64,000 nt of DNA from Hyunsoonleella sp. 2307UL5-6 (GTDB lineage: Bacteria > Bacteroidota > Bacteroidia > Flavobacteriales > Flavobacteriaceae): assembly GCF_047345485.1 (NCBI RefSeq), contig NZ_JBLFEN010000005.1, positions 14,142 through 78,141 on the forward strand, given 5' to 3'. Under the pieces are notes generated by a model. The model worked only from the letters and a program-made list of their open reading frames with translations, did no database searches and was not told the DNA's origin. Numbering within the stretch: position 1 is the first letter of the stretch; each line of letters starts with the position of its first letter. Of this stretch, positions 22,848 through 42,208 are shown piece by piece. Position numbers and translations under genes: made by a program.

Positions 22848-23105
22848 ATGTTTGTTTACGTTCTTAGAAGTGATAAAGATGGAAGGTTTTATGTTGGTAT
22901 TACCGCAACTATTGAAAAGCGGTTAAAAGAACATAATGCTGGAAAAACAAAAAGTACTAAAGGATATCGTCCTTGGAAATTGTTTTTCTTTGAAAGTTTT
23001 GATACAAGACAAGAAGCTAGAAAGCGAGAAAAGTATTTAAAAACTGGATATGGAAAACAATGGATAAAAGAAAAATATAATAGGGCCTATAACTCAGTTG
23101 GTTAG
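22848..23105 (+). CDS. small GIY-YIG-domain nuclease (homing-endonuclease-like). The last 8 codons and the stop are encoded by the 5' end of the tRNA gene.
   Basis: YVYVLRSDKDGRFYVGITATIEKRLKEHN...YRPWKLFFFESFDTRQEARKREKYLK carries the GIY...YIG, Arg and Glu core residues. The ORF ends NRAYNSVG-TAG inside the tRNA D-arm. Confidence 0.85.
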   Translation: MFVYVLRSDKDGRFYVGITATIEKRLKEHNAGKTKSTKGYRPWKLFFFESFDTRQEARKREKYLKTGYGKQWIKEKYNRAYNSVG

Positions 23106-23156
23106 AGTATCTGACTCATAATCAGAAAGTCCCTGGTTCGAGCCCAGGTGGGCCCA
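23083..23156 (+). tRNA. tRNA with CAT anticodon (elongator tRNA-Met or lysidine-modified tRNA-Ile2)
   Basis: 74 nt GGGCCTATAACTCAGTTGGTTAGAGTATCTGACTCATAATCAGAAAGTCCCTGGTTCGAGCCCAGGTGGGCCCA. All four stems pair. TTCGAGC T-loop. CCA is not encoded. Confidence 0.85.
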
Positions 23157-23901: not shown

Positions 23902-24624
23902 ATGAAGCATCAAAATTTAAATAGAGAAGCTAGATATGGTGTGCCTGAAGCAGATCAAATTCTTTACAACAGGCATTACGCATTAGGGTATTCCTACTAT
24001 TTTAGGCAAGCCAAATGGGCACTTGAAATAGTAGACCCAGATATGACTCAAGTAGTAAGGAAAGATTATTTTAGATCAGATTATCGCATACCTGAAGAGT
24101 TTAGAGCAGATAAAGACGTGTATGCTAATTCTGGGTACAATAGAGGACATCTTGTGGCTAGCGCTAACCAAATTGAAACCGAAATACAGAATAGTGAGAC
24201 GTTTTTATTATCTAATATGTGCCCCCAAGTTCCAGAATTTAATAGTGGTATATGGAAACGACTAGAAGATGCCGTGAGACATTTAGACAGTGATAAAAAA
24301 GTATTTGAAACTTATGTTATTTCAGGGCCGTTGTTTTATTTTGATCAAGATGTTGTAATGATAGGAGACGATAATCCTAATATAAAAGTGTCTTTACCAA
24401 TACCACATGCTTTTTTTAAATCTGTACTTACTGAAAGAAATACTGGCACTTTTAATATGTGGTCTTTTATAATTCCTAATAAAAAAACGAGTGCGCCTTT
24501 AGACGACTTTTTAGTAGAAACCTCTAAAGTTGAGAAAATTTCTGGTTTGTTTTTATGGGATACATTAAAAGGCACAAAAATTATGAATAAAAAGAATAGA
24601 ATTAAAAAGATGTGGAGGCTTTAG
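23902..24624 (+). CDS. DNA/RNA non-specific endonuclease (NUC / Serratia-nuclease family), no signal peptide
   Basis: GYNRGHLVASANQ (DRGH-type active-site motif) and an SNMCPQ...N metal site. 240 aa. Confidence 0.8.
   Translation: MKHQNLNREARYGVPEADQILYNRHYALGYSYYFRQAKWALEIVDPDMTQVVRKDYFRSDYRIPEEFRADKDVYANSGYNRGHLVASANQIETEIQNSETFLLSNMCPQVPEFNSGIWKRLEDAVRHLDSDKKVFETYVISGPLFYFDQDVVMIGDDNPNIKVSLPIPHAFFKSVLTERNTGTFNMWSFIIPNKKTSAPLDDFLVETSKVEKISGLFLWDTLKGTKIMNKKNRIKKMWRL
24599..24624 (+). repeat. 26-bp direct repeat gaattaaaaagatgtggaggctttag (copy 1, the 3' end of the nuclease gene)
   Basis: Identical copy at 25450-25475. The pair flanks a segment containing a single 147-aa ORF. Confidence 0.85.
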
Positions 24625-25515: not shown

Positions 25516-28500
25516 TTATTTATCCAACCCCTTCTTCAAAACCTCTTTTATGCCTTCCAAATGCTCACTAAAAGTCATCATTTGGTTTAGTACTTGTACC
25601 ATGTCGTTTTGATTACCAAAACCTTTGAGTTTGTTGTTTTTTATAAATGTAGTTTTAATAGTTTCCCAACGTTTGCTTTCTGTCACATCTATTGTATTTG
25701 TAAGCTCCTTATATTTTAGTAAATTGGCTTCAGCTGCAGTGGTTAATGTTTGCGATTCGTTTTCATAATGTGATAATAAAAGTGTTTGCAACTCTTTATC
25801 ATTCATTATAGGTACTACTTTAGCAACTAGCTTATTCATATCTCTATAAGACCCTTGCAATTTAAATGACGGTTCTGTACGGTAGCTATCATCCATAGCT
25901 GCAGATGTAATATATGTAGCATTAACTTTCAAAACAGTATCTCTTATACTAACCACCTTATCTAACACATCTAAATAATCTTGAATTTCTTGTTTTGTAT
26001 GGTTTCCAGTTAAGTTTAAACTATCTCGACTACCCGTCTCTACAGCTGTTATCAATTGATAAATATCATCAAAATATTTACTACTTAATTGGTGTAAAAT
26101 AGGATTTGAAGTAAGTGCGTTTTCAATTAAACTTAGTTTGAATAAATCTACAGTATCGCCAATAACATCTCCTAAATTGTAAATATCTGCTCTATTGGCA
26201 AGCATATCTGGTATTTGAAATTTTTCACCACTTTCAGTATAAGGGTTTCCTGCCATAATAACACAAAACTTTTTACTTCGTAAATCGTATGTTTTTGGCT
26301 TGCCGTTATACACACCCTCTATTTTTCGTGTGCCATCTGCAAGGGATATAAATTTTTGCAAAAACTCAGGGTTGCAATGTTGTATATCGTCTAAATACAA
26401 CATCACATTGTTACCCATTTCAAAAGCTAAATTCAGTTTTTTGAGTTCTTCTCTTGCCGCTGCGTTATTTGCAGTTAATGGGTCTACAGAAGTAACCTCG
26501 TGCCCAATGGCTGGTCCATTTATTTTCATAAATACTAACCCTAAACGGTTTGCCATATATTCCATTAATGTTGTTTTACCATAACCAGGAGGCGATATTA
26601 ATAGTAACATCCCCATTCTATCGGTGCGCTTATTATCACCAACACTACCTAACTGTTTAGATAAATTATCGCCAAATAATGGTAAATACACTTGGTCTAT
26701 CAATTTATTTCTTACAAAAGAGGATAGTACTCTCGGTTTAAATTCCTCTAGTTTTAAACTGTCTTTTAAAGCCTCTGTAACCGAGTGTTTTGCATTACGA
26801 TATGCAAGATATGCAGGCACTTCAACGGTATAAAACACTTCTGACTGATGTATGAAATTATGATAGTTAAATTCAAAATTGCCGTTTTGAATGGTATCAT
26901 GACTCCCTTTTAAATTCGATATAACTAAAGAAGGATTTACTTGAATACTATTTGAGTTTGCCTCAGTTTTAAATAAAATAAGTGCAACAACTTCGTATAT
27001 ATATGCTCTGTGTTCTTTTAATTCTGATTTTACAAATGAACTTACCCATTGCGTTGTTAATTGTACAGCATCTATTGAGATTTTGTTATCACCAAGTGCT
27101 TTTTTTAATGAAGCTTTAAATGCAGTAATTACTTTTTTACTTTTTAATGTTTTTATAAAACTATCATAAACATCTTGAGCTGTTTTACTAACACAAAACG
27201 TATTGTCGCTTTGCAATTCATCAAATAAGTAATGCGCCGCTTGCACATCTAGCTTATCTGCTTCACCTTTATAATATTTAGCTATACTTGCTTTAAATAC
27301 CGTTGATTTTAATGCATTACATAACTGCTTAATAAGTACATTATGCGCCTTACTTTCTGGAAAAGCAGTTAGTACCTCTCCTGAAGCTTTTATCTTTTGA
27401 TTCCAATCTGCTTTAGTAGTACTATCTAGTGCATTCCAAAAAAACTGCGCGTAAGCTCTCACTATAGGTTCATATCGTAATAGACCTAAATCTTGATGCT
27501 TATCGCGTAATGCCGTAAGTATTTTAGCAGCATCTTCATCATGAACACCCTTAATATACCCTTCTGAATAGTTTTTACTGCTTTCTGCCTTAACAAGATC
27601 TAATAGTTTAGTATTACTGAGAGTATCTATGTTTAGCGATGTATCTATAAATAGTTTATAGGCTAAGTACGAGGAACGGTATACGGTATCGTTTTCTGAT
27701 ACTAATTCCTGATTCCAATACTTTTTAGATTGTGTTAACGTTTCGTTTACAATAGTTTGATAAAAATCGGTACCTGTAAGGTGGTATTTAAGCGTATTAT
27801 CTTTATAAACAATCGTTAAGTCCAAAGGTTGCTTATTTACGCCAAATTTATGCTTGCCAAGTTTTATAATATTTTCACCATCTTCATATAAATCCTGAGT
27901 ATCTTTTAGCTTTCTAACAGCATCTTCCTTGGCTACTTTTAGTCCAGTTTCAATAGCTTCGGCTTTTCCAGCATCGTCTAAATCTTTTAGATTATTTACG
28001 ATATCTCGAAGCTTAGTAATCATTAAGTCTGACGCAAAATAACCGTTAATCTCTACCGTAGTTTTAAACGATTGTGCTTTTTTAGATACGCCTTTTAAAA
28101 TACGTTTAGCAGCAGCTTCTAAGGTTACTGCCTTTCTGTTTCTTGCCTCAACAAGGCCGTTTTTTCTTGCTTCAAACGCATTATAAACTTCTTCTCTTTT
28201 TTCTATAATTTGAGCTATAAAGTCCTCAAAATCTGCAAATCTACCTTCTAAATCTTCTAACTGAACAGAAACTTTATTTAAAAGTTCGTCTGTTTTCTCT
28301 GGAGTAGTAGCAATATCTAAGTAATTAATAATACTTTGATCTACTAATTTAAGTTGTGCAGCAAATTCTGCAGTCGCCTCTTTTTCGCCTAAGGTGTTTA
28401 GTTTGTTTTTTAATCCTGCTTTTAACTGATTAATAGTGGCAAAAATCAGGGAAATATTATCAATGATTTTTGTGGAATGCGATGCATCTTCAATCTCTAG

Positions 28501-30420
28501 ATTAGATACAATATCGATTAGCATTTCTAAATCTGTAGCAATGTGATTAATCTCTTCTTCTAACTTTTTAGCCTCTATAACTTTTTTAATCTTATCAAGT
28601 TCCGTTTCTTTTTCCGAAACACGATTGTGGTAAGGTACAAGTGCTTTGTCGTTAATTAAAAATTGTACACAACGCTCGGAAATTTTATCGTTATAGACGA
28701 TAATATCATCCTCTAGTGCAGTGATAAAAGAAGTATCTATATAACGGACATCGTTTAAACCAATAACTTCGCCACGAAGCGTGCGCAATTGCGATAAAAC
28801 TGCTACAAAATCTTCAATAGATTTAAAGCTACTACTTTTTATTTTACCAAAAACATCATTTGCTTTGTTTTGGGTTTCTTTGGTAATATTAGCTGCTGTT
28901 TTACGCAGTTGTACCACTTTTTCAAACTCATCAATGGCAGCATTAGCAGCTTCATTTACCGCTGTTAAAGGTTCATTAATTAAAAAAGTATCCGGTTCGG
29001 TTATCCAATAATAACTGTTTAAAACATCAGTTGAGGCTTTGGCAATATCATCATACAACCCATCATAATTATCCTCTTTGTTAAGCAATGTAATAAGTGC
29101 TTGACACTCTGCCATTGCTTTAACAATATCTTTATTTCCTATTTTATAAAGTAGCGTATCTGTATGTTCAGAAGGTATAATATCTCCTTTTACAAAAGGG
29201 GTTTGCCATATTTGGATAACATGGTGTTTGGTTTGCTCGTCCTCGGTTTTAAAATAACAAAGTTCTCCATCGTTTAAAATAGTATACCCATTACAAACTA
29301 TAGGTGTTTTAACCTCTTGCTCTATAACGTTATAGGACATTAAAATGTAAAGCCCCTTTTCACTTTCATAAAATACGTACAGGTAATCCTCACCATTGGG
29401 TGAACTTACTTTCTTTTGAAACTTAACATTTGAAATTCCGCTATCGAATAGCTTAAAATCACCGGATTGTAAATAGTAACCATCAGCAAAAATAATTCCC
29501 TGATCGTCAGGTAATAGCACGCATGCATCAGCAATACTTGGTATCTTTTTTACCTCTTGTATTTTATGATTATATACAAAATACCTTGGAGGTTCTTGAA
29601 AAGGTTTGATTTCTAAAGCAATTAAATTACCTAGATCTGCATATTTGTATTGACCGTCGTCTAAAGTTTGGTCTATATGTTTTACAGGTTCATCGTAAAT
29701 ACCTTTACCATCATCTGTATTGTCTTCAATTTTAATGGTTAAATCCCCTCCAACAGTTTCTACAAATACTTTATCTAATATAGATATGTGTGGATGTGTG
29801 CCATATACATGATGATCTCTAGTAGGCTCTACCCAATTAAATTCGTATTGATTTGGAAATTTAAATTCATGTTCACTACGGTTGTCCACATATTCAAGCT
29901 TACCATCATTAATTAACCATTTAAATGTTTTAATATCAGTAATACTCTCACTTAATTGAAATACCATATGCAGATAATTACCAACTATAGCAAATTTTGA
30001 AAAAATGGTATTTCTGTAGTATTTGTAAAGATTTGTAAAATCCTGCTGAAAAACATCGTTTTCTATAAGCGTTAGAGGCTGAATTGTAAAATGGTTGTTA
30101 GCATAGGTATATACACTAAACACATCGGTAAGTGTAATACCAGTTCTAAGTCCGAAATGTACATTATACCCAAATAAACAAACGTCGCCTATGGTTACAA
30201 TATCTCTAGCAATACAGTTATGCTCTGTATTAATACGATTATTCGCTATAAGTTTAGTTTCAACATTACCAAATACCGTTTTACGGGCATCGTTTAATTG
30301 AGATAATCTGGAAAGAAGCTCGCTTTTTTGCTTTTGTAAACGCCCTTGAATAATTTCATAGGTGCCACCGTCTAGTTGTATATTATTTTCTGAGTTGGGT
30401 TGTTCCATAGTTTTATGCAA
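25516..30420 (-). CDS. giant (1634 aa) coiled-coil protein with a single C-terminal MoxR/AAA_5-type AAA+ ATPase module
   Basis: Walker A LLLISPPGYGKTTLMEY, Walker B VMLYLDDIQHCNPEF and sensor MAGNPYT lie around residues 1240-1400. About 1200 aa of predicted beta-rich and coiled-coil N-terminal sequence. Last gene of the flotillin operon. Confidence 0.8.
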   Translation of the reverse strand: MHKTMEQPNSENNIQLDGGTYEIIQGRLQKQKSELLSRLSQLNDARKTVFGNVETKLIANNRINTEHNCIARDIVTIGDVCLFGYNVHFGLRTGITLTDVFSVYTYANNHFTIQPLTLIENDVFQQDFTNLYKYYRNTIFSKFAIVGNYLHMVFQLSESITDIKTFKWLINDGKLEYVDNRSEHEFKFPNQYEFNWVEPTRDHHVYGTHPHISILDKVFVETVGGDLTIKIEDNTDDGKGIYDEPVKHIDQTLDDGQYKYADLGNLIALEIKPFQEPPRYFVYNHKIQEVKKIPSIADACVLLPDDQGIIFADGYYLQSGDFKLFDSGISNVKFQKKVSSPNGEDYLYVFYESEKGLYILMSYNVIEQEVKTPIVCNGYTILNDGELCYFKTEDEQTKHHVIQIWQTPFVKGDIIPSEHTDTLLYKIGNKDIVKAMAECQALITLLNKEDNYDGLYDDIAKASTDVLNSYYWITEPDTFLINEPLTAVNEAANAAIDEFEKVVQLRKTAANITKETQNKANDVFGKIKSSSFKSIEDFVAVLSQLRTLRGEVIGLNDVRYIDTSFITALEDDIIVYNDKISERCVQFLINDKALVPYHNRVSEKETELDKIKKVIEAKKLEEEINHIATDLEMLIDIVSNLEIEDASHSTKIIDNISLIFATINQLKAGLKNKLNTLGEKEATAEFAAQLKLVDQSIINYLDIATTPEKTDELLNKVSVQLEDLEGRFADFEDFIAQIIEKREEVYNAFEARKNGLVEARNRKAVTLEAAAKRILKGVSKKAQSFKTTVEINGYFASDLMITKLRDIVNNLKDLDDAGKAEAIETGLKVAKEDAVRKLKDTQDLYEDGENIIKLGKHKFGVNKQPLDLTIVYKDNTLKYHLTGTDFYQTIVNETLTQSKKYWNQELVSENDTVYRSSYLAYKLFIDTSLNIDTLSNTKLLDLVKAESSKNYSEGYIKGVHDEDAAKILTALRDKHQDLGLLRYEPIVRAYAQFFWNALDSTTKADWNQKIKASGEVLTAFPESKAHNVLIKQLCNALKSTVFKASIAKYYKGEADKLDVQAAHYLFDELQSDNTFCVSKTAQDVYDSFIKTLKSKKVITAFKASLKKALGDNKISIDAVQLTTQWVSSFVKSELKEHRAYIYEVVALILFKTEANSNSIQVNPSLVISNLKGSHDTIQNGNFEFNYHNFIHQSEVFYTVEVPAYLAYRNAKHSVTEALKDSLKLEEFKPRVLSSFVRNKLIDQVYLPLFGDNLSKQLGSVGDNKRTDRMGMLLLISPPGYGKTTLMEYMANRLGLVFMKINGPAIGHEVTSVDPLTANNAAAREELKKLNLAFEMGNNVMLYLDDIQHCNPEFLQKFISLADGTRKIEGVYNGKPKTYDLRSKKFCVIMAGNPYTESGEKFQIPDMLANRADIYNLGDVIGDTVDLFKLSLIENALTSNPILHQLSSKYFDDIYQLITAVETGSRDSLNLTGNHTKQEIQDYLDVLDKVVSIRDTVLKVNATYITSAAMDDSYRTEPSFKLQGSYRDMNKLVAKVVPIMNDKELQTLLLSHYENESQTLTTAAEANLLKYKELTNTIDVTESKRWETIKTTFIKNNKLKGFGNQNDMVQVLNQMMTFSEHLEGIKEVLKKGLDK

Positions 30421-30632
30421 TTATGGCTCTAATTATATTAAATAAATTTTCAATCTTTTTTTATCTCTTCATAATAGTAGAACTATAGCTTATTTGTTGG
30501 TTTTAAACAATTTATCAAAAGACGTTTTATTTAAGTCAAAAAACCTTTTTCAATTTTCAATATCAGGGATTACTTCAATAATAGTAGAATTGTATGTGAT
30601 ATTAGAAAAAAAACCTTTTGTTAAACGATATT

Positions 30633-30929
30633 TTATAGAATCACCTTTATGGGCAATTGTGTAATTATCGTGGTTACTTCTAATAATAATTTCGTTGTTA
30701 ATCTTATCCTGATAAAGAATAAATATCCGTTAGGATCATACTTAGGTGAATTTACTACATTATGCCCTCTTCTGCTATTATTACTTGCTACGGTAAAAAC
30801 GACTTTATTTACATAATCTTTTTTTATTAAAACTCCACTTATATATTCATCTTGAGACAACTTATTATCTACAAAATATATTAGTGTTAGAGATAATATT
30901 ATTATTAAAATAATTTTTACTTTTGTCAC
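30633..30929 (-). CDS. small signal-anchored protein; possible frameshift near 30720
   Basis: 98-aa ORF. An alternative frame from about 30725 down to 30605 reads ...FILYQDKINNEIIIRSNHDNYTIAHKGDSIKYRLTKGFFF, which looks more protein-like than the annotated C-terminus. Confidence 0.4.
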   Translation of the reverse strand: MTKVKIILIIILSLTLIYFVDNKLSQDEYISGVLIKKDYVNKVVFTVASNNSRRGHNVVNSPKYDPNGYLFFIRIRLTTKLLLEVTTIITQLPIKVIL

Positions 30930-30967
30930 TAAACGTCTAAGATTTCAAATATTTATTTCTAATTTAA

Positions 30968-33034
30968 CTATCCTAACTTTTTATTAGATAAACCTAAACC
31001 TTTAGCCAAATTTGATAGGTTTTCAAATAAGCTAGCTTCACTAGAATCTGTTGTTTTAGATTTTAAATCTATTAACAAATTAGCAATGGTTAGGTTTTTA
31101 ATATCTTCAGAAGAAATGCCGTATTTAGTAGCAAACTCTTTAACTTTTTCTAAAAGATTACCCTTTACATCATCACTTCCTAAAATAGCATCTTTAACCT
31201 CAGTAATATTATCAGAATGATTAATTAATCTATCTACACCTTTAGACTTTGTAATTTGACCGACAATTTGATCGAAGAACATAGTTTCTCCACCAACAAT
31301 ATCAATATTAGCAGCTTTTAAAGCTTCACCAATTACATTAGCTTGTGCATCTGCAATTTCTTTCTGTATATTAATTTCAGCTAAATCAACTTGAAGTTCT
31401 TTATCTAAGCGTAGTTTAAACTCTTCGTGTTCTTTACCAACACCGTCCAGTTTTTTCATAGCTTCGGCTTTTTCTTCAATACCAACAGCTTCTGCTAAAG
31501 CTTTTTCTTTAATCACTTCTGCCGCTGCAATACCCTCTTCTTTAACAGCACCTGCTTTTGCTAAAATACCAGCTGCTTCTGCTTTTGCTTTTTCTTCAAT
31601 AATATTAGCTTCAACCAAACCTTGGCGTTCATTAGCATCAGCTTTTGCATGCATTACTTGCGCTTCAGACATTCCTATGGTTGCCTCTTCTTTAGCTTTT
31701 GCTTCCGCTAGGGTTTTTCTTGCTTCTGCTTCTTTTTGGCTAGCTTGTTTCTTAGCTTCTGCTTCAATATTTATTTCTTCTGCTTTTTGTTTAGATGCTT
31801 CTTTTTCCGCCTCTGCAGCTTTAATGGTTTTAATTAAACTTTCTTGCGCGTTAGCTTCAGCTATAGTTATTTTTACTTGCTTTTCTCTATCAGCAGTTTT
31901 AAAAGCCTCAATATCTTTCATGTTTTCCTGCTCCTCAACCACACCTTTTTCTAGCATTACACGATCGCGGATAACATCTTGAATGTTTTTCTTTTCAACC
32001 TCAACAACTTTCTCTTTTTCAATTTGAGCAAGTGTAACAATGCGTTCTCTTTCGGTAGCCTCCAACATTCTGTCTTTTTCAACACGCTCTGTCTCAACAG
32101 CATCTGTACGTTGCTTATTTTTGGCTGCCACTATAATTTGGCGTTCCATGTTTTCTTCGGCTACTTTTACCTTTTCCTGTGTAGAAATTCTAGCACTTTC
32201 AGATTTTAAACGTTCCTCTTCTGCCACTTTTAGGGTTTCTGCTTCCTCACGTGCTTTTATATTTGCAATTTCACGCTTTTGTTGCTCTTCTTTTTCAGCG
32301 AGTTGTTTATCTAGCTCTAAAATTGCTTCTCGCGCCTCTACATCTTGCTTGCGTATTACTTTTTCTTCGTCACGCTTAATAAGGTTAGCTTTCATATTTT
32401 GTGCAGCTGTAAGCTCTGTAATTTTTTTGATACCCTCGGCATCCAAAATATTATCAGATTTTAAAAACTGTACTGAGGTTTGCTCTAAATAATCTATGGC
32501 ACAATCTTCTAAAGTATAGCCATTAAGGTCAGTACCTATAATGTCTACAATTTCATCACGAAACTCTCTACGTGCTTCATATAATTCTACAAAGTTGAAT
32601 TTTTTACCTACAGTTTTTAAAGCTTCTGAAAACTTAGCCTCAAAAAGCTCCTCTAATGTTGAAATATCAGAAGCTCTCTCACAACCCACAGTTTGTGCTA
32701 CTTTTTTAATAAAATCTACTTCATTATTAACTCTTACAAAAAAGGCTACTTTAATATCAGCTCTCATATTATCTTTACACAACAAACCATTATCTGCAAT
32801 ACGTTCTATTTGAATTTTCTTTACTGAAATATCCATTATTTCAACTCTATGAAATACGGGAACGACGTACAAACCTTTGTCTGTAGCAACCTTAGTGCCT
32901 TTAAAACCTGTTCTAACTAAAGCTTCCCCTTGTGGTACTTTTTTGTAAAACAGTGCAATAATTGCAAAATAAACGATAATTAAGAATAGAATAAGCCCGA
33001 TACCTATTCCGATAAACTGTGAAATGTTTTCCAT
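30968..33034 (-). CDS. flotillin-family SPFH protein (YqiK-like)
   Basis: N-terminal TM + SPFH/Band-7 domain (VRTGFKGTKV...VPVFHRVEIMDIS...RADIKVAFFVRV) closely parallels E. coli YqiK. Long EA/KA-rich coiled coil. 688 aa. Confidence 0.88.
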   Translation of the reverse strand: MENISQFIGIGIGLILFLIIVYFAIIALFYKKVPQGEALVRTGFKGTKVATDKGLYVVPVFHRVEIMDISVKKIQIERIADNGLLCKDNMRADIKVAFFVRVNNEVDFIKKVAQTVGCERASDISTLEELFEAKFSEALKTVGKKFNFVELYEARREFRDEIVDIIGTDLNGYTLEDCAIDYLEQTSVQFLKSDNILDAEGIKKITELTAAQNMKANLIKRDEEKVIRKQDVEAREAILELDKQLAEKEEQQKREIANIKAREEAETLKVAEEERLKSESARISTQEKVKVAEENMERQIIVAAKNKQRTDAVETERVEKDRMLEATERERIVTLAQIEKEKVVEVEKKNIQDVIRDRVMLEKGVVEEQENMKDIEAFKTADREKQVKITIAEANAQESLIKTIKAAEAEKEASKQKAEEINIEAEAKKQASQKEAEARKTLAEAKAKEEATIGMSEAQVMHAKADANERQGLVEANIIEEKAKAEAAGILAKAGAVKEEGIAAAEVIKEKALAEAVGIEEKAEAMKKLDGVGKEHEEFKLRLDKELQVDLAEINIQKEIADAQANVIGEALKAANIDIVGGETMFFDQIVGQITKSKGVDRLINHSDNITEVKDAILGSDDVKGNLLEKVKEFATKYGISSEDIKNLTIANLLIDLKSKTTDSSEASLFENLSNLAKGLGLSNKKLG

Positions 33035-33065
33035 TGTTAATTTGGTTTTGGTTTTAGATTAAATT

Positions 33066-33806
33066 TTAAAATTCGACGTTATTCATATTAAATGCATCTT
33101 CCTCCACATCTTCATAAGGGAGTACCCAATAAAAATTTCCGTCGTCAGATTTTTTAATAACTAGTATATGTTGTTTGTAATTTATAAGCTGACCATCAAA
33201 TGATTTTGCATAAATAGACATGGGATTACCATTTGCGACTACCTCTGCAGACCCCATTTTTTGTTCTGAAATTTTTGAAAGCATTATGCCTTCCATACCC
33301 GCTAAATCTGTTGGCAAATCCCCATCTGGATTCAAGTTTTTAAAAAATCCTTTAAATGGTGTTGTAAAAATTTTAGTTAAAATTAAAGACGGCAGAATAC
33401 CTGCTAAAAGTAATGTGTAACCAAAATTAGTATTATAAGACATTGTGATACTTGTTGAAATAACGGTACACAACCACCAAATAAAAATCCAACAGGTAAA
33501 CGTGAACATAAATGGTAAGCCCACAAAATTAAAATAGATGAGCACCATTTGCCACCATTCTAATTTTTTGTTGGGGTTTTTAACTACATCTTCTTTATTA
33601 ATTTCAGCATTTGCAAGGTCTGGTAAGTTGGTACTGCTGTCTATTGTGGCGTTTACATCCACATCGGCATCAATATCTACATCTATATCCAAATCAAAAT
33701 CAATACCAGATATCATATTAAATATCCAATATAGAATTAGTAAAATAACTAAAAGACTAAGTATAATATTTACAGACGAAAATGCAATGTCAATAACTGA
33801 ATTCAA
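33066..33806 (-). CDS. YqiJ/NfeD-like membrane protein with C-terminal OB-fold
   Basis: TM helices, acidic DxDxD repeat segment and a C-terminal beta domain. Immediately upstream of flotillin, as in yqiJ-yqiK. Confidence 0.7.
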   Translation of the reverse strand: MNSVIDIAFSSVNIILSLLVILLILYWIFNMISGIDFDLDIDVDIDADVDVNATIDSSTNLPDLANAEINKEDVVKNPNKKLEWWQMVLIYFNFVGLPFMFTFTCWIFIWWLCTVISTSITMSYNTNFGYTLLLAGILPSLILTKIFTTPFKGFFKNLNPDGDLPTDLAGMEGIMLSKISEQKMGSAEVVANGNPMSIYAKSFDGQLINYKQHILVIKKSDDGNFYWVLPYEDVEEDAFNMNNVEF

Positions 33807-41821: not shown

Positions 41822-41874
41822 GGCGCCTGCCTACCTGCGGTATAGCAGGCAGGTTACCCAAGGGTCGGGCTTTC
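41821..41874. repeat. family-B repeat (hairpin gcctgcctacctgcggtatagcaggcagg + gggtcgggctttc)
   Basis: About 85% identical to 56345-56400. The same hairpin occurs in the pseudo-tRNA at 22795-22823. Confidence 0.8.
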
Positions 41875-41897
41875 CGCTATATCTTTTTACGAAGCAG

Positions 41898-41918
41898 TCT
41901 CGAACTTGTTTCGGGATC
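41898..41918. repeat. family-C element tctcgaacttgtttcgggatc
   Basis: Matches 14632-14651. Confidence 0.7.
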
Positions 41919-42208
41919 TCAGTAAGTCATTAACAATTATCCTTAAACATAAAATTCTGATATTTAAAGCTTCGCAAAAAAGATGCCGCTGCAATCCCTA
42001 ACACAATTATCTGCTAGATTATCGGTTTGAAATCTAAGTGACTTTATTTTTGGAGAGTTTCGTTTAACGTTTATGTATATGGAAAGTTGCGTGTTTGAGT
42101 GCGAGGATTTTCCGAAGGAAAATCAGAAGCTAGCAAACAAAGCAACTAACATTGATTAAGCACAAAACAGCAATTTTTTATACACTGTGTTGTGTGTAGT
42201 TTTTTATT

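Follow-up and report, generated by a model that had tools for sequence, protein, structure and literature searches.

A stretch of 64,000 nucleotides from the flavobacterium Hyunsoonleella sp. 2307UL5-6 (contig NZ_JBLFEN010000005.1, positions 14,142 to 78,141; hereafter the window, on which all coordinates are given unless a locus is named) carries on its minus strand the genes for a membrane protein similar to YqiJ, a flotillin of the YqiK type and a giant cytosolic ATPase that belongs to the DUF3686 family. These three genes form a widespread and strongly conserved module that is inherited together, with a synteny that is retained across at least eight phyla. We regard a direct functional coupling of the YqiJ-like protein, the flotillin and the ATPase as highly likely. 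The linkage of the trio is already known from comparative genomics published in 2020 and 2024.

The sequence-only reading of this region described four minus-strand open reading frames (ORFs) packed in series, and the ORF calls agree with it in coordinates, strand and spacing. They lie at 33806-33066 (246 amino acids, aa), 33034-30968 (688 aa), 30929-30633 (98 aa) and 30420-25516 (1634 aa), separated by spacers of 31, 38 and 212 nt. The length of 1634 aa given for the last one is right for the mechanical ORF, which begins with a TTG at 30420. The true start of the ATPase is almost certainly the ATG at 30408, chosen by sequence comparison because the 98%-identical protein P0001 starts likewise, and this would give a protein of 1630 aa (25516-30408, minus strand).

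The evidence for the module lies in its gene order. More than 5,500 database proteins are homologous to the ATPase; at a threshold of 50% identity the family falls into 1,356 clusters, and co-linear matches of 1,600-1,900 aa over the full length extend down to 26% identity. The closest matches (81-83% identity) are found in the marine Flavobacteriaceae Hyunsoonleella, Flavivirga and Seonamhaeicola, and identity across Flavobacteriaceae genera ranges from 68 to 86%. A diverse family alignment gave at least 587 matches in a set of species-representative genomes, and the loci of the best 80 of these were fetched. They span Bacteroidota (Flavobacteriales, Sphingobacteriales, Cytophagales, Bacteroidales, Saprospiraceae), Planctomycetota, Verrucomicrobiota, Desulfobacterota and Clostridia. 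Among the 65 loci that have at least 4 kb of upstream sequence, 63 carry a flotillin gene directly upstream of the ATPase gene and on the same strand. This adjacency is far beyond chance. The sequence-only reading had said that confinement of the adjacency to a single strain would refute its proposal; no such confinement is seen, and the synteny across phyla supports its suggestion of a functional partnership between the ATPase and the flotillin pair.

Clustering of the ORFs in 84 loci gave a similar picture. The ATPase was present in 83 loci, the flotillin in 74 and the YqiJ-like protein in 66, followed by PspA (34), a helix-turn-helix (HTH) protein (32) and CesT_Tir_1 (32); shadow ORFs aside, no other ORF family occurred in more than 14 of the 84. 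The PspA, CesT and HTH genes are confined to Bacteroidota loci, and in roughly half of all loci the trio follows PspA and CesT_Tir genes. The order in the full operon is HTH (divergent), CesT, PspA, YqiJ-like, flotillin, ATPase. The divergent regulator, found in 32 Bacteroidota loci (for example at 1547-2302 of locus L001), combines an HTH_3 domain with a weak match to Peptidase_S24 (LexA/CI-like), which suggests that the full operons could be controlled by a self-cleaving repressor. The trio also occurs in independently annotated records of the well-studied megaplasmid pQBR103 of Pseudomonas fluorescens, a Streptomyces linear plasmid and a Deinococcus megaplasmid. In pQBR103 (P. fluorescens SBW25, 85.4-101.5 kb) it is preceded on the same strand by genes for PspA, a rhomboid protein, DUF2491, DUF350 and DUF1190 proteins and glutathionylspermidine synthase.

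An operon of this kind has been described by Ravi, Anantharaman, Aravind, Gennaro et al. (mSystems 2024, PMC11237479; bioRxiv 2020), in which a CesT/Tir-PspA dyad is joined by three further genes. These encode a three-transmembrane protein typified by YqiJ/YuaF, a protein with Band-7, coiled-coil and flotillin regions, and a protein with a β-propeller, coiled coils and an AAA-ATPase. The same authors reported that abbreviated operons, which contain only the flotillin, YqiJ/YuaF and in some cases the ATPase, have a wider distribution and could act together with PspA encoded elsewhere (PMC11237479). On the basis of comparative genomics they also made the functional proposal that is discussed below, ATP-driven remodelling in membrane maintenance. 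The three core genes of the window have the same order and architecture, and the example in their Table S3, the flavobacterium Dokdonia donghaensis, fits the Flavobacteriaceae loci found here, where the orthologous ATPases of Dokdonia share 68-69% identity with that of the window. The statement of the sequence-only reading that a giant ATPase is not a described component of SPFH/NfeD modules therefore fails, since Ravi et al. describe both the same operon in Dokdonia and its abbreviated form. The pQBR103 locus unites two PspA contexts that were given separately by Ravi et al.

In contrast to the full operon, the window has neither the CesT/Tir-PspA dyad nor the divergent HTH-protease regulator, and a decayed passenger gene lies in its spacer before the ATPase gene. 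No homologues of PspA, CesT or the HTH protein were found in the 64-kb window, which makes its trio an abbreviated form of the operon; the closest relatives of the locus likewise lack the dyad and the regulator. Better known gene pairs are also similar. In Escherichia coli yqiJ-yqiK and Bacillus subtilis yuaF-floT a YqiJ-like gene lies directly upstream of the gene for a YqiK-like flotillin, with measurable homology to the proteins of the window. However, E. coli has no ATPase gene downstream of yqiJ-yqiK, where small RNA/toxin genes and hldE are located instead.

The YqiJ-like (NfeD-type) protein of 246 aa (33066-33806, minus strand) has an N-terminal transmembrane (TM) helix, an acidic DxDxD stretch, two further hydrophobic segments and a C-terminal β-rich domain. 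The hydrophobic segments lie at aa 7-25, about 87-117 and 131-149, and the acidic stretch, DFDxDxDxD, is invariant in an alignment of homologues. Its assignment required a diverse profile. The single sequence had no match in Pfam or NCBIfam, including the DUF1449/YqiJ and NfeD models, and its sole match in the Protein Data Bank (PDB) was YuaF (2K14) with E = 0.74; a low-diversity profile built from close homologues, those of the same alignment, also gave no link to YqiJ or YuaF. A profile of 66 proteins that are encoded directly upstream of a flotillin in many phyla, together with the window protein, did match E. coli YqiJ (hmmsearch E = 3.6e-12). In hhalign this profile aligned with E. coli YqiJ at 96% probability over 140 columns that span the TM segments and the C-terminal β domain. 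Because of this match the YqiJ-like assignment holds, and some sources indeed name the homologues 'DUF1449 family' or 'OB-fold-containing protein'. The gene is directly upstream of the flotillin gene and co-oriented with it, with a spacer of 31 nt in the window, and the same arrangement is found in 66 loci.

The flotillin (688 aa, 30968-33034, minus strand) is built from an N-terminal TM anchor (aa 10-28), an SPFH/Band_7 domain, a long coiled coil rich in Glu, Ala and Lys, and a C-terminal extension that is specific to the family. Its type is given by a Band_7 match and by homology to YqiK. The full-length protein returned nothing from Pfam and NCBIfam; the Band_7 match (PF01145, E = 8e-16; its score of 59 bits exceeds the cut-off of 23.6) was recovered by scanning the N-terminal 231 aa alone and covers aa 31-176 (32507-32944). 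Identity to E. coli YqiK is 31% over 453 aa (E = 4e-45), and the homology runs through the SPFH domain and the coiled coil. Residues 231-520 contain 21% Glu, 18% Ala and 13% Lys.

A profile of the ATPase-linked flotillins matched YqiK with E = 2.4e-70, but the alignment was limited to aa 8-445. The window flotillin is 135 aa longer than E. coli YqiK, and its last 175 aa (aa 514-688; 30971-31495, minus strand) had no BLAST match to YqiK and no Pfam family. This segment is conserved in the ATPase-linked flotillins and was found by tblastn at 40-86% identity in loci from all sampled phyla. Since the segment is conserved across phyla yet absent from YqiK, the ATPase-linked flotillins constitute a distinct subfamily with its own C-terminal domain. 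We suggest that this extension is a candidate docking region for the ATPase.

The ATPase has no hydrophobic segments. The sequence-only reading held its AAA module to be the only recognisable domain; Pfam matches two more regions, and DUF3686, DUF7902 and the single C-terminal AAA module are co-linear over the full length of the protein, all above the Pfam cut-off. The DUF3686 region covers aa 34-471 (29008-30321, minus strand; E = 5e-182, 605.8 bits). It is followed by a long middle region (aa 472-1230, 26731-29007, minus strand) that is predominantly helical by the secondary structure of an AlphaFold model and within which DUF7902 occupies aa 592-674 (28399-28647, minus strand; E = 1.8e-26, 92.6 bits). 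Pfam gave no family for aa 675-1230. The model of the N-terminal 1,200 residues, obtained from an alignment of 52 sequences, has a mean pLDDT of 82. In it a helix spans aa 18-50 and some 28 β-strands occupy aa 56-406, and the DUF3686 region thus modelled is probably an N-terminal helix followed by an all-β domain in the form of a seven-bladed β-propeller. Between aa 423 and 844 the model has very long helices; a small β unit (aa 852-889) follows, and then further helices as far as aa 1150. In the middle region the longest helices reach about 58 residues. A Foldseek search with the N-terminal model returned exclusively β-propeller proteins (Nup155-type, Elp1, Vps18, prolyl oligopeptidase and thiocyanate dehydrogenase), with very low TM-scores of 0.05-0.12 of the query. 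The matches to nucleoporins and to proteins of intraflagellar transport (IFT) and the HOPS complex were rejected as homology, given the low scores and a similarity that extends to the propeller fold alone.

Near the C-terminus lies a single AAA+ module of the MoxR/AAA_5 clade (approximately aa 1240-1440; 26101-26703, minus strand), recognised by its motifs and by Pfam, in which both AAA_5 and AAA exceed the threshold at aa 1272-1397 (AAA module 36.5 bits). The module includes a Walker A motif SPPGYGKT (26572-26595, minus strand), a Walker B-like LDDIQH (aa 1343-1348), a sensor-1 motif AGNP (aa 1390-1393) and an NRAD motif (aa 1409-1412). The core is followed by a helical lid with the family signature FxLQGSYR (aa 1519-1526). 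The motifs SPPGYGKT, DDIQH, AGNP, NR(A)D and FxLQGSYR are invariant in 18 family members whose identity to the window ATPase is 28-48%, and because of this invariance across the family the ATPase is probably an active enzyme. The AAA_5-type assignment is based on the Walker A motif, the NP of sensor 1, a β-hairpin before sensor 1 and fold neighbours within the clade. The nearest structural group contains MoxR, midasin and dynein, and the neighbours themselves are MoxR-type chaperone ATPases; a sequence search of the PDB gave P-loop matches to VCP/p97 only. Where the β-hairpin insert in helix 2 that marks the clade was looked for, the family has a conserved stretch of about 15 inserted residues (NGPAxGHxVTSLDP; residues 153-170 of the model) between β2 and α2, which the model does not fold as a hairpin. 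The identities that the sequence-only reading gave to the three main genes are thus correct: the YqiJ-like protein by the diverse profile, the YqiK-like flotillin by Band_7 and its identity to YqiK, and the ATPase by a single MoxR/AAA_5 module near its C-terminus.

Known MoxR-type ATPases act with partners that contain a von Willebrand factor A (VWA) domain. The MoxR proteins CbbQ, NorQ and RavA are about 250-500 aa long, and their VWA partners are CbbO, NorD and ViaA, respectively. The ATPase of the window differs from these in its 1,230-aa N-terminal extension of propeller and helices, in its Walker B motif, and in that it has no VWA partner.

The small 98-aa ORF between the flotillin and ATPase genes was regarded in the sequence-only reading as a signal-anchored fourth partner. 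It is instead the 5' part of a decayed accessory gene (30493-30929, minus strand). The intact orthologue is a signal-anchored protein of 132-146 aa (about 140 aa) in the related locus L082. The 132-aa protein of L082 aligns with the window in two frames, in frame -3 at 30875-30708 and in frame -2 at 30720-30493, where there is an in-frame stop. The two nucleotide sequences are 69% identical with one single-base gap, which coincides with the frame switch. The lesions are the loss of one nucleotide near 30710 and a TGA codon at 30550-30552, and the window copy is considered a disrupted gene because the protein aligns in two frames, with the switch at the single-base deletion and the TGA further on. 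A sequencing error is less likely for the deletion, as its site is not a homopolymer. Since the frameshift and the TGA cut the ORF short, the '212-nt spacer' consists mostly of remains of the accessory gene. No homologues of the 98-aa ORF were found in 80 other related loci. In view of its decay, its lack of conservation and the unrelated content of the spacer elsewhere, it was rejected as a fourth component of the module; it is a decayed passenger gene that stands outside the machine.

The flotillin-ATPase spacer, at 30421-30967 in the window, is an insertion hot spot. Its median length over 72 loci is 147 nt, without a gene in it, and unrelated ORFs are present in about 29 of the 72, such as L001 (6942-8000), L082 (9481-10000), L084 (959-1593), L015, L041, L050, L055 and L060. 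In L084, whose ATPase is 98% identical to that of the window, the spacer contains a gene for a MORN-repeat (MORN_2) lipoprotein without nucleotide similarity to the window insert; in Tenacibaculum it contains a GIY-YIG protein. Judged by eye without a Pfam scan, the spacer ORFs of other loci include look-alikes of IS200/RAYT-type and DUF559-type proteins as well as various small membrane proteins. The spacer is empty in H. pacifica and another relative.

The chromosomal surroundings of the trio are stable among close relatives. In Hyunsoonleella pacifica, whose ATPase is 83% identical, the gene order is the same as in the window on both flanks: fabH, rpmF, yceD, pdxA, ribE and a tetratricopeptide repeat (TPR) gene, then the YqiJ-like, flotillin and ATPase genes, then Endonuclease_NS, glyoxalase, rbfA and ftsX. 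The TPR gene is the upstream neighbour of the YqiJ-like gene in the window and divergent to it. A metagenome-assembled relative (L083, ATPase 84% identical) has the upstream flank in common with the window. Since the neighbours match in H. pacifica and, on the upstream side, in L083, the trio occupies a stable position in the core genome and not an island. Different flanking genes, none of which is present in the window, surround the trio in L082 (1911-6330 and 14970-18016), where the ATPase is 86% identical. One flank there contains genes for an ADP-ribosylglycohydrolase, a Macro protein, a PRPP synthetase-like protein and NUDIX/NrtR; on the other lie a pair of genes for RlaP nucleotidyltransferases and one more Band_7 gene.

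The sequence conservation, the synteny and the domain architectures suggest possible functions for the trio. The best hypothesis is that of a membrane-microdomain remodelling machine. The locus would be an abbreviated membrane-maintenance module in which the ATPase uses ATP to remodel assemblies of the flotillin, and of PspA where present; we consider this particular mechanism about as likely as not. In it the flotillin and the YqiJ-like protein would form an SPFH assembly on the inner membrane, on the side of the cytoplasm. Like MoxR-type ATPases, the ATPase would oligomerise through its AAA+ module, and its stalk and propeller could reach the flotillin/YqiJ assembly, perhaps through the extra C-terminal domain of the flotillin. 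ATP hydrolysis would then drive assembly, disassembly or remodelling of the flotillin scaffold. In genomes that possess PspA the ATPase may act also on the PspA/ESCRT-III-like polymer. The mechanism would be analogous to the action of Vps4 on ESCRT-III, in which an AAA+ machine remodels an ESCRT-III/PspA-type polymer, or to FtsH inside HflK/C, in which the partner of the AAA+ machine is an SPFH scaffold; both analogies are functional only. That the ATPase is free of TM segments whereas both of its partners are membrane-anchored is in agreement with such a mechanism.

Several observations weigh against remodelling by the ATPase. The Walker B motif has DD in place of the usual DE. No conserved gene for a VWA partner appeared among the ORF clusters of the 84 loci, as judged by clustering only and with no direct Pfam VWA scan. 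Two loci, the sole exceptions among the 65, carry the ATPase gene with neither a flotillin nor a YqiJ-like gene in the 7-10 kb that precede it; one is from an uncultured Bacteroidia bacterium (L049), the other from a metagenome-assembled genome of a Desulfobacteraceae member (L057). Any link to PspA in the window must act in trans because there is no PspA within 64 kb. We infer the physical interaction, the oligomeric state and the substrate alike. In the literature no experimental study of a DUF3686 (PF12458) ATPase was found, and the ATPase is not mentioned in papers on SPFH proteins (PMC2636767, PMC13086221, PMC9239133, PMC11188069).

A more specific form of the remodelling mechanism can be considered, in which the ATPase would be the long-missing energy-consuming partner of bacterial flotillins and would form a hexameric ring of the MoxR type; in outline the idea is found already in Ravi et al. 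Six propeller-tipped stalks would sit on the C-terminal domains of the flotillins, and the ring would open, close or recycle SPFH cages and, where they occur, PspA polymers. We hold this form to be possible but rather unlikely in its full detail. If true, it would constitute a bacterial counterpart of the membrane-repair cycles of the Vps4/ESCRT type.

Other functions can be envisaged for the same genes. The trio could be a coat- or motor-like machine. The propeller and helices would then scaffold membranes in the manner of coat proteins, and the AAA+ ring, instead of simply taking the flotillin scaffold apart, would power vesiculation, tubulation or transport along it. For the N-terminal 1,200 aa, the proteins that Foldseek ranks highest combine a propeller with a helical solenoid and belong to the nuclear pore, IFT and HOPS complexes. 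MoxR, midasin and dynein form the group closest to the AAA module, and the family is common in Planctomycetota, Verrucomicrobiota and Bacteroidota. However, the TM-scores are as low as stated above and indicate no more than a shared propeller fold, the ATPase possesses a single AAA module and not a concatenated ring as in dynein or midasin, and the sequence gives no sign that the ATPase binds membranes directly, so that this function appears improbable. A role in anti-phage defence or abortive infection, which the sequence-only reading had also raised, would have the flotillin and the YqiJ-like protein sense or execute membrane damage, with the giant NTPase as sensor or switch. Large NTPases with propeller and coiled-coil sensors are frequent in conflict systems, and PspA has historically been tied to phage stress. 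Small selfish genes gather in the spacer before the ATPase gene (the GIY-YIG gene and the ORFs that look by eye like transposases of the IS200/RAYT type and endonucleases of the DUF559 type), the trio of L082 lies near Macro, ADP-ribosylglycohydrolase and NUDIX genes, and some copies are on megaplasmids. Yet PADLOC gave only trivial matches to the Walker A/P-loop (E = 6e-4 and 5e-3), and no nuclease, TIR, protease or pore-former domain was detected in the trio. The ATPase is strongly conserved across Flavobacteriaceae genera. The housekeeping neighbours (fabH, rpmF, yceD, pdxA and ribE on one side, rbfA and ftsX on the other) are constant in different genera, unlike those of a defence island. 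The family was found on 13 of 72,556 plasmid records and on none of 50,697 phage records. Defence is therefore a distinctly improbable role for the trio.

The database names point in a different direction. NCBI calls the family 'DNA repair ATPase' and Pfam describes DUF3686 as 'ATPase involved in DNA repair', which would make the adjacency to the flotillin a matter of chance. Weak sub-threshold matches of the P-loop region to RuvB and the HTH_3 regulator of the full operons, with its weak Peptidase_S24 (LexA/CI-like) match, could be cited in favour. The RuvB matches, however, reach 20-22 bits where the cut-offs are 27-299, and they extend over only about 45 residues surrounding Walker A. The structural neighbours are MoxR-type chaperone ATPases, and the genes that invariably accompany that of the ATPase encode two membrane proteins. 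In the ATPase no domain for DNA binding, nuclease or helicase activity was detected, and no paper was found that backs the name. A DNA repair function with fortuitous proximity to the flotillin is hardly credible, and the name is misleading; our guess is that it arose from coiled-coil similarity to SMC/Rad50-type proteins.

Some further features of the window were recorded. Its G+C content is about 32%. A gene for a DNA/RNA non-specific endonuclease (Endonuclease_NS, E = 2e-42) lies at 23902-24624 on the plus strand, convergent to the ATPase gene. Its position is kept in L084 (ATPase 98% identical) and L086 (83%) but not in L083 or more distant loci, and since it is on the opposite strand and adjoins the ATPase gene in the closest relatives only, it was rejected as a partner of the module. 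Rfam matched a tRNA gene at 23083-23156 (plus strand, 70 bits) and a Flavo-1 small RNA at 41859-42006 (minus strand, 49.9 bits against a gathering score of 42), the latter in keeping with DNA from the Flavobacteriaceae. A scan of the operon for sigma-70 promoters and terminators gave results not above those of shuffled sequence and is uninformative for a Bacteroidota genome.

The function of bacterial flotillins is still debated, and we know of no dedicated energy source for flotillin assembly or turnover. Because the association of the three genes has already been published, the value of the present analysis lies in confirmation and detail: the strength of the synteny, the assignment of the ATPase to the MoxR clade, the C-terminal domain of the flotillin, the misleading nature of the name 'DNA repair ATPase' and the recognition of the small ORF as a decayed passenger. 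A soluble AAA+ ATPase whose gene in many phyla almost always lies directly downstream of that for one subfamily of flotillins offers a concrete experimental handle on the function of flotillins and on membrane repair of the PspA type.

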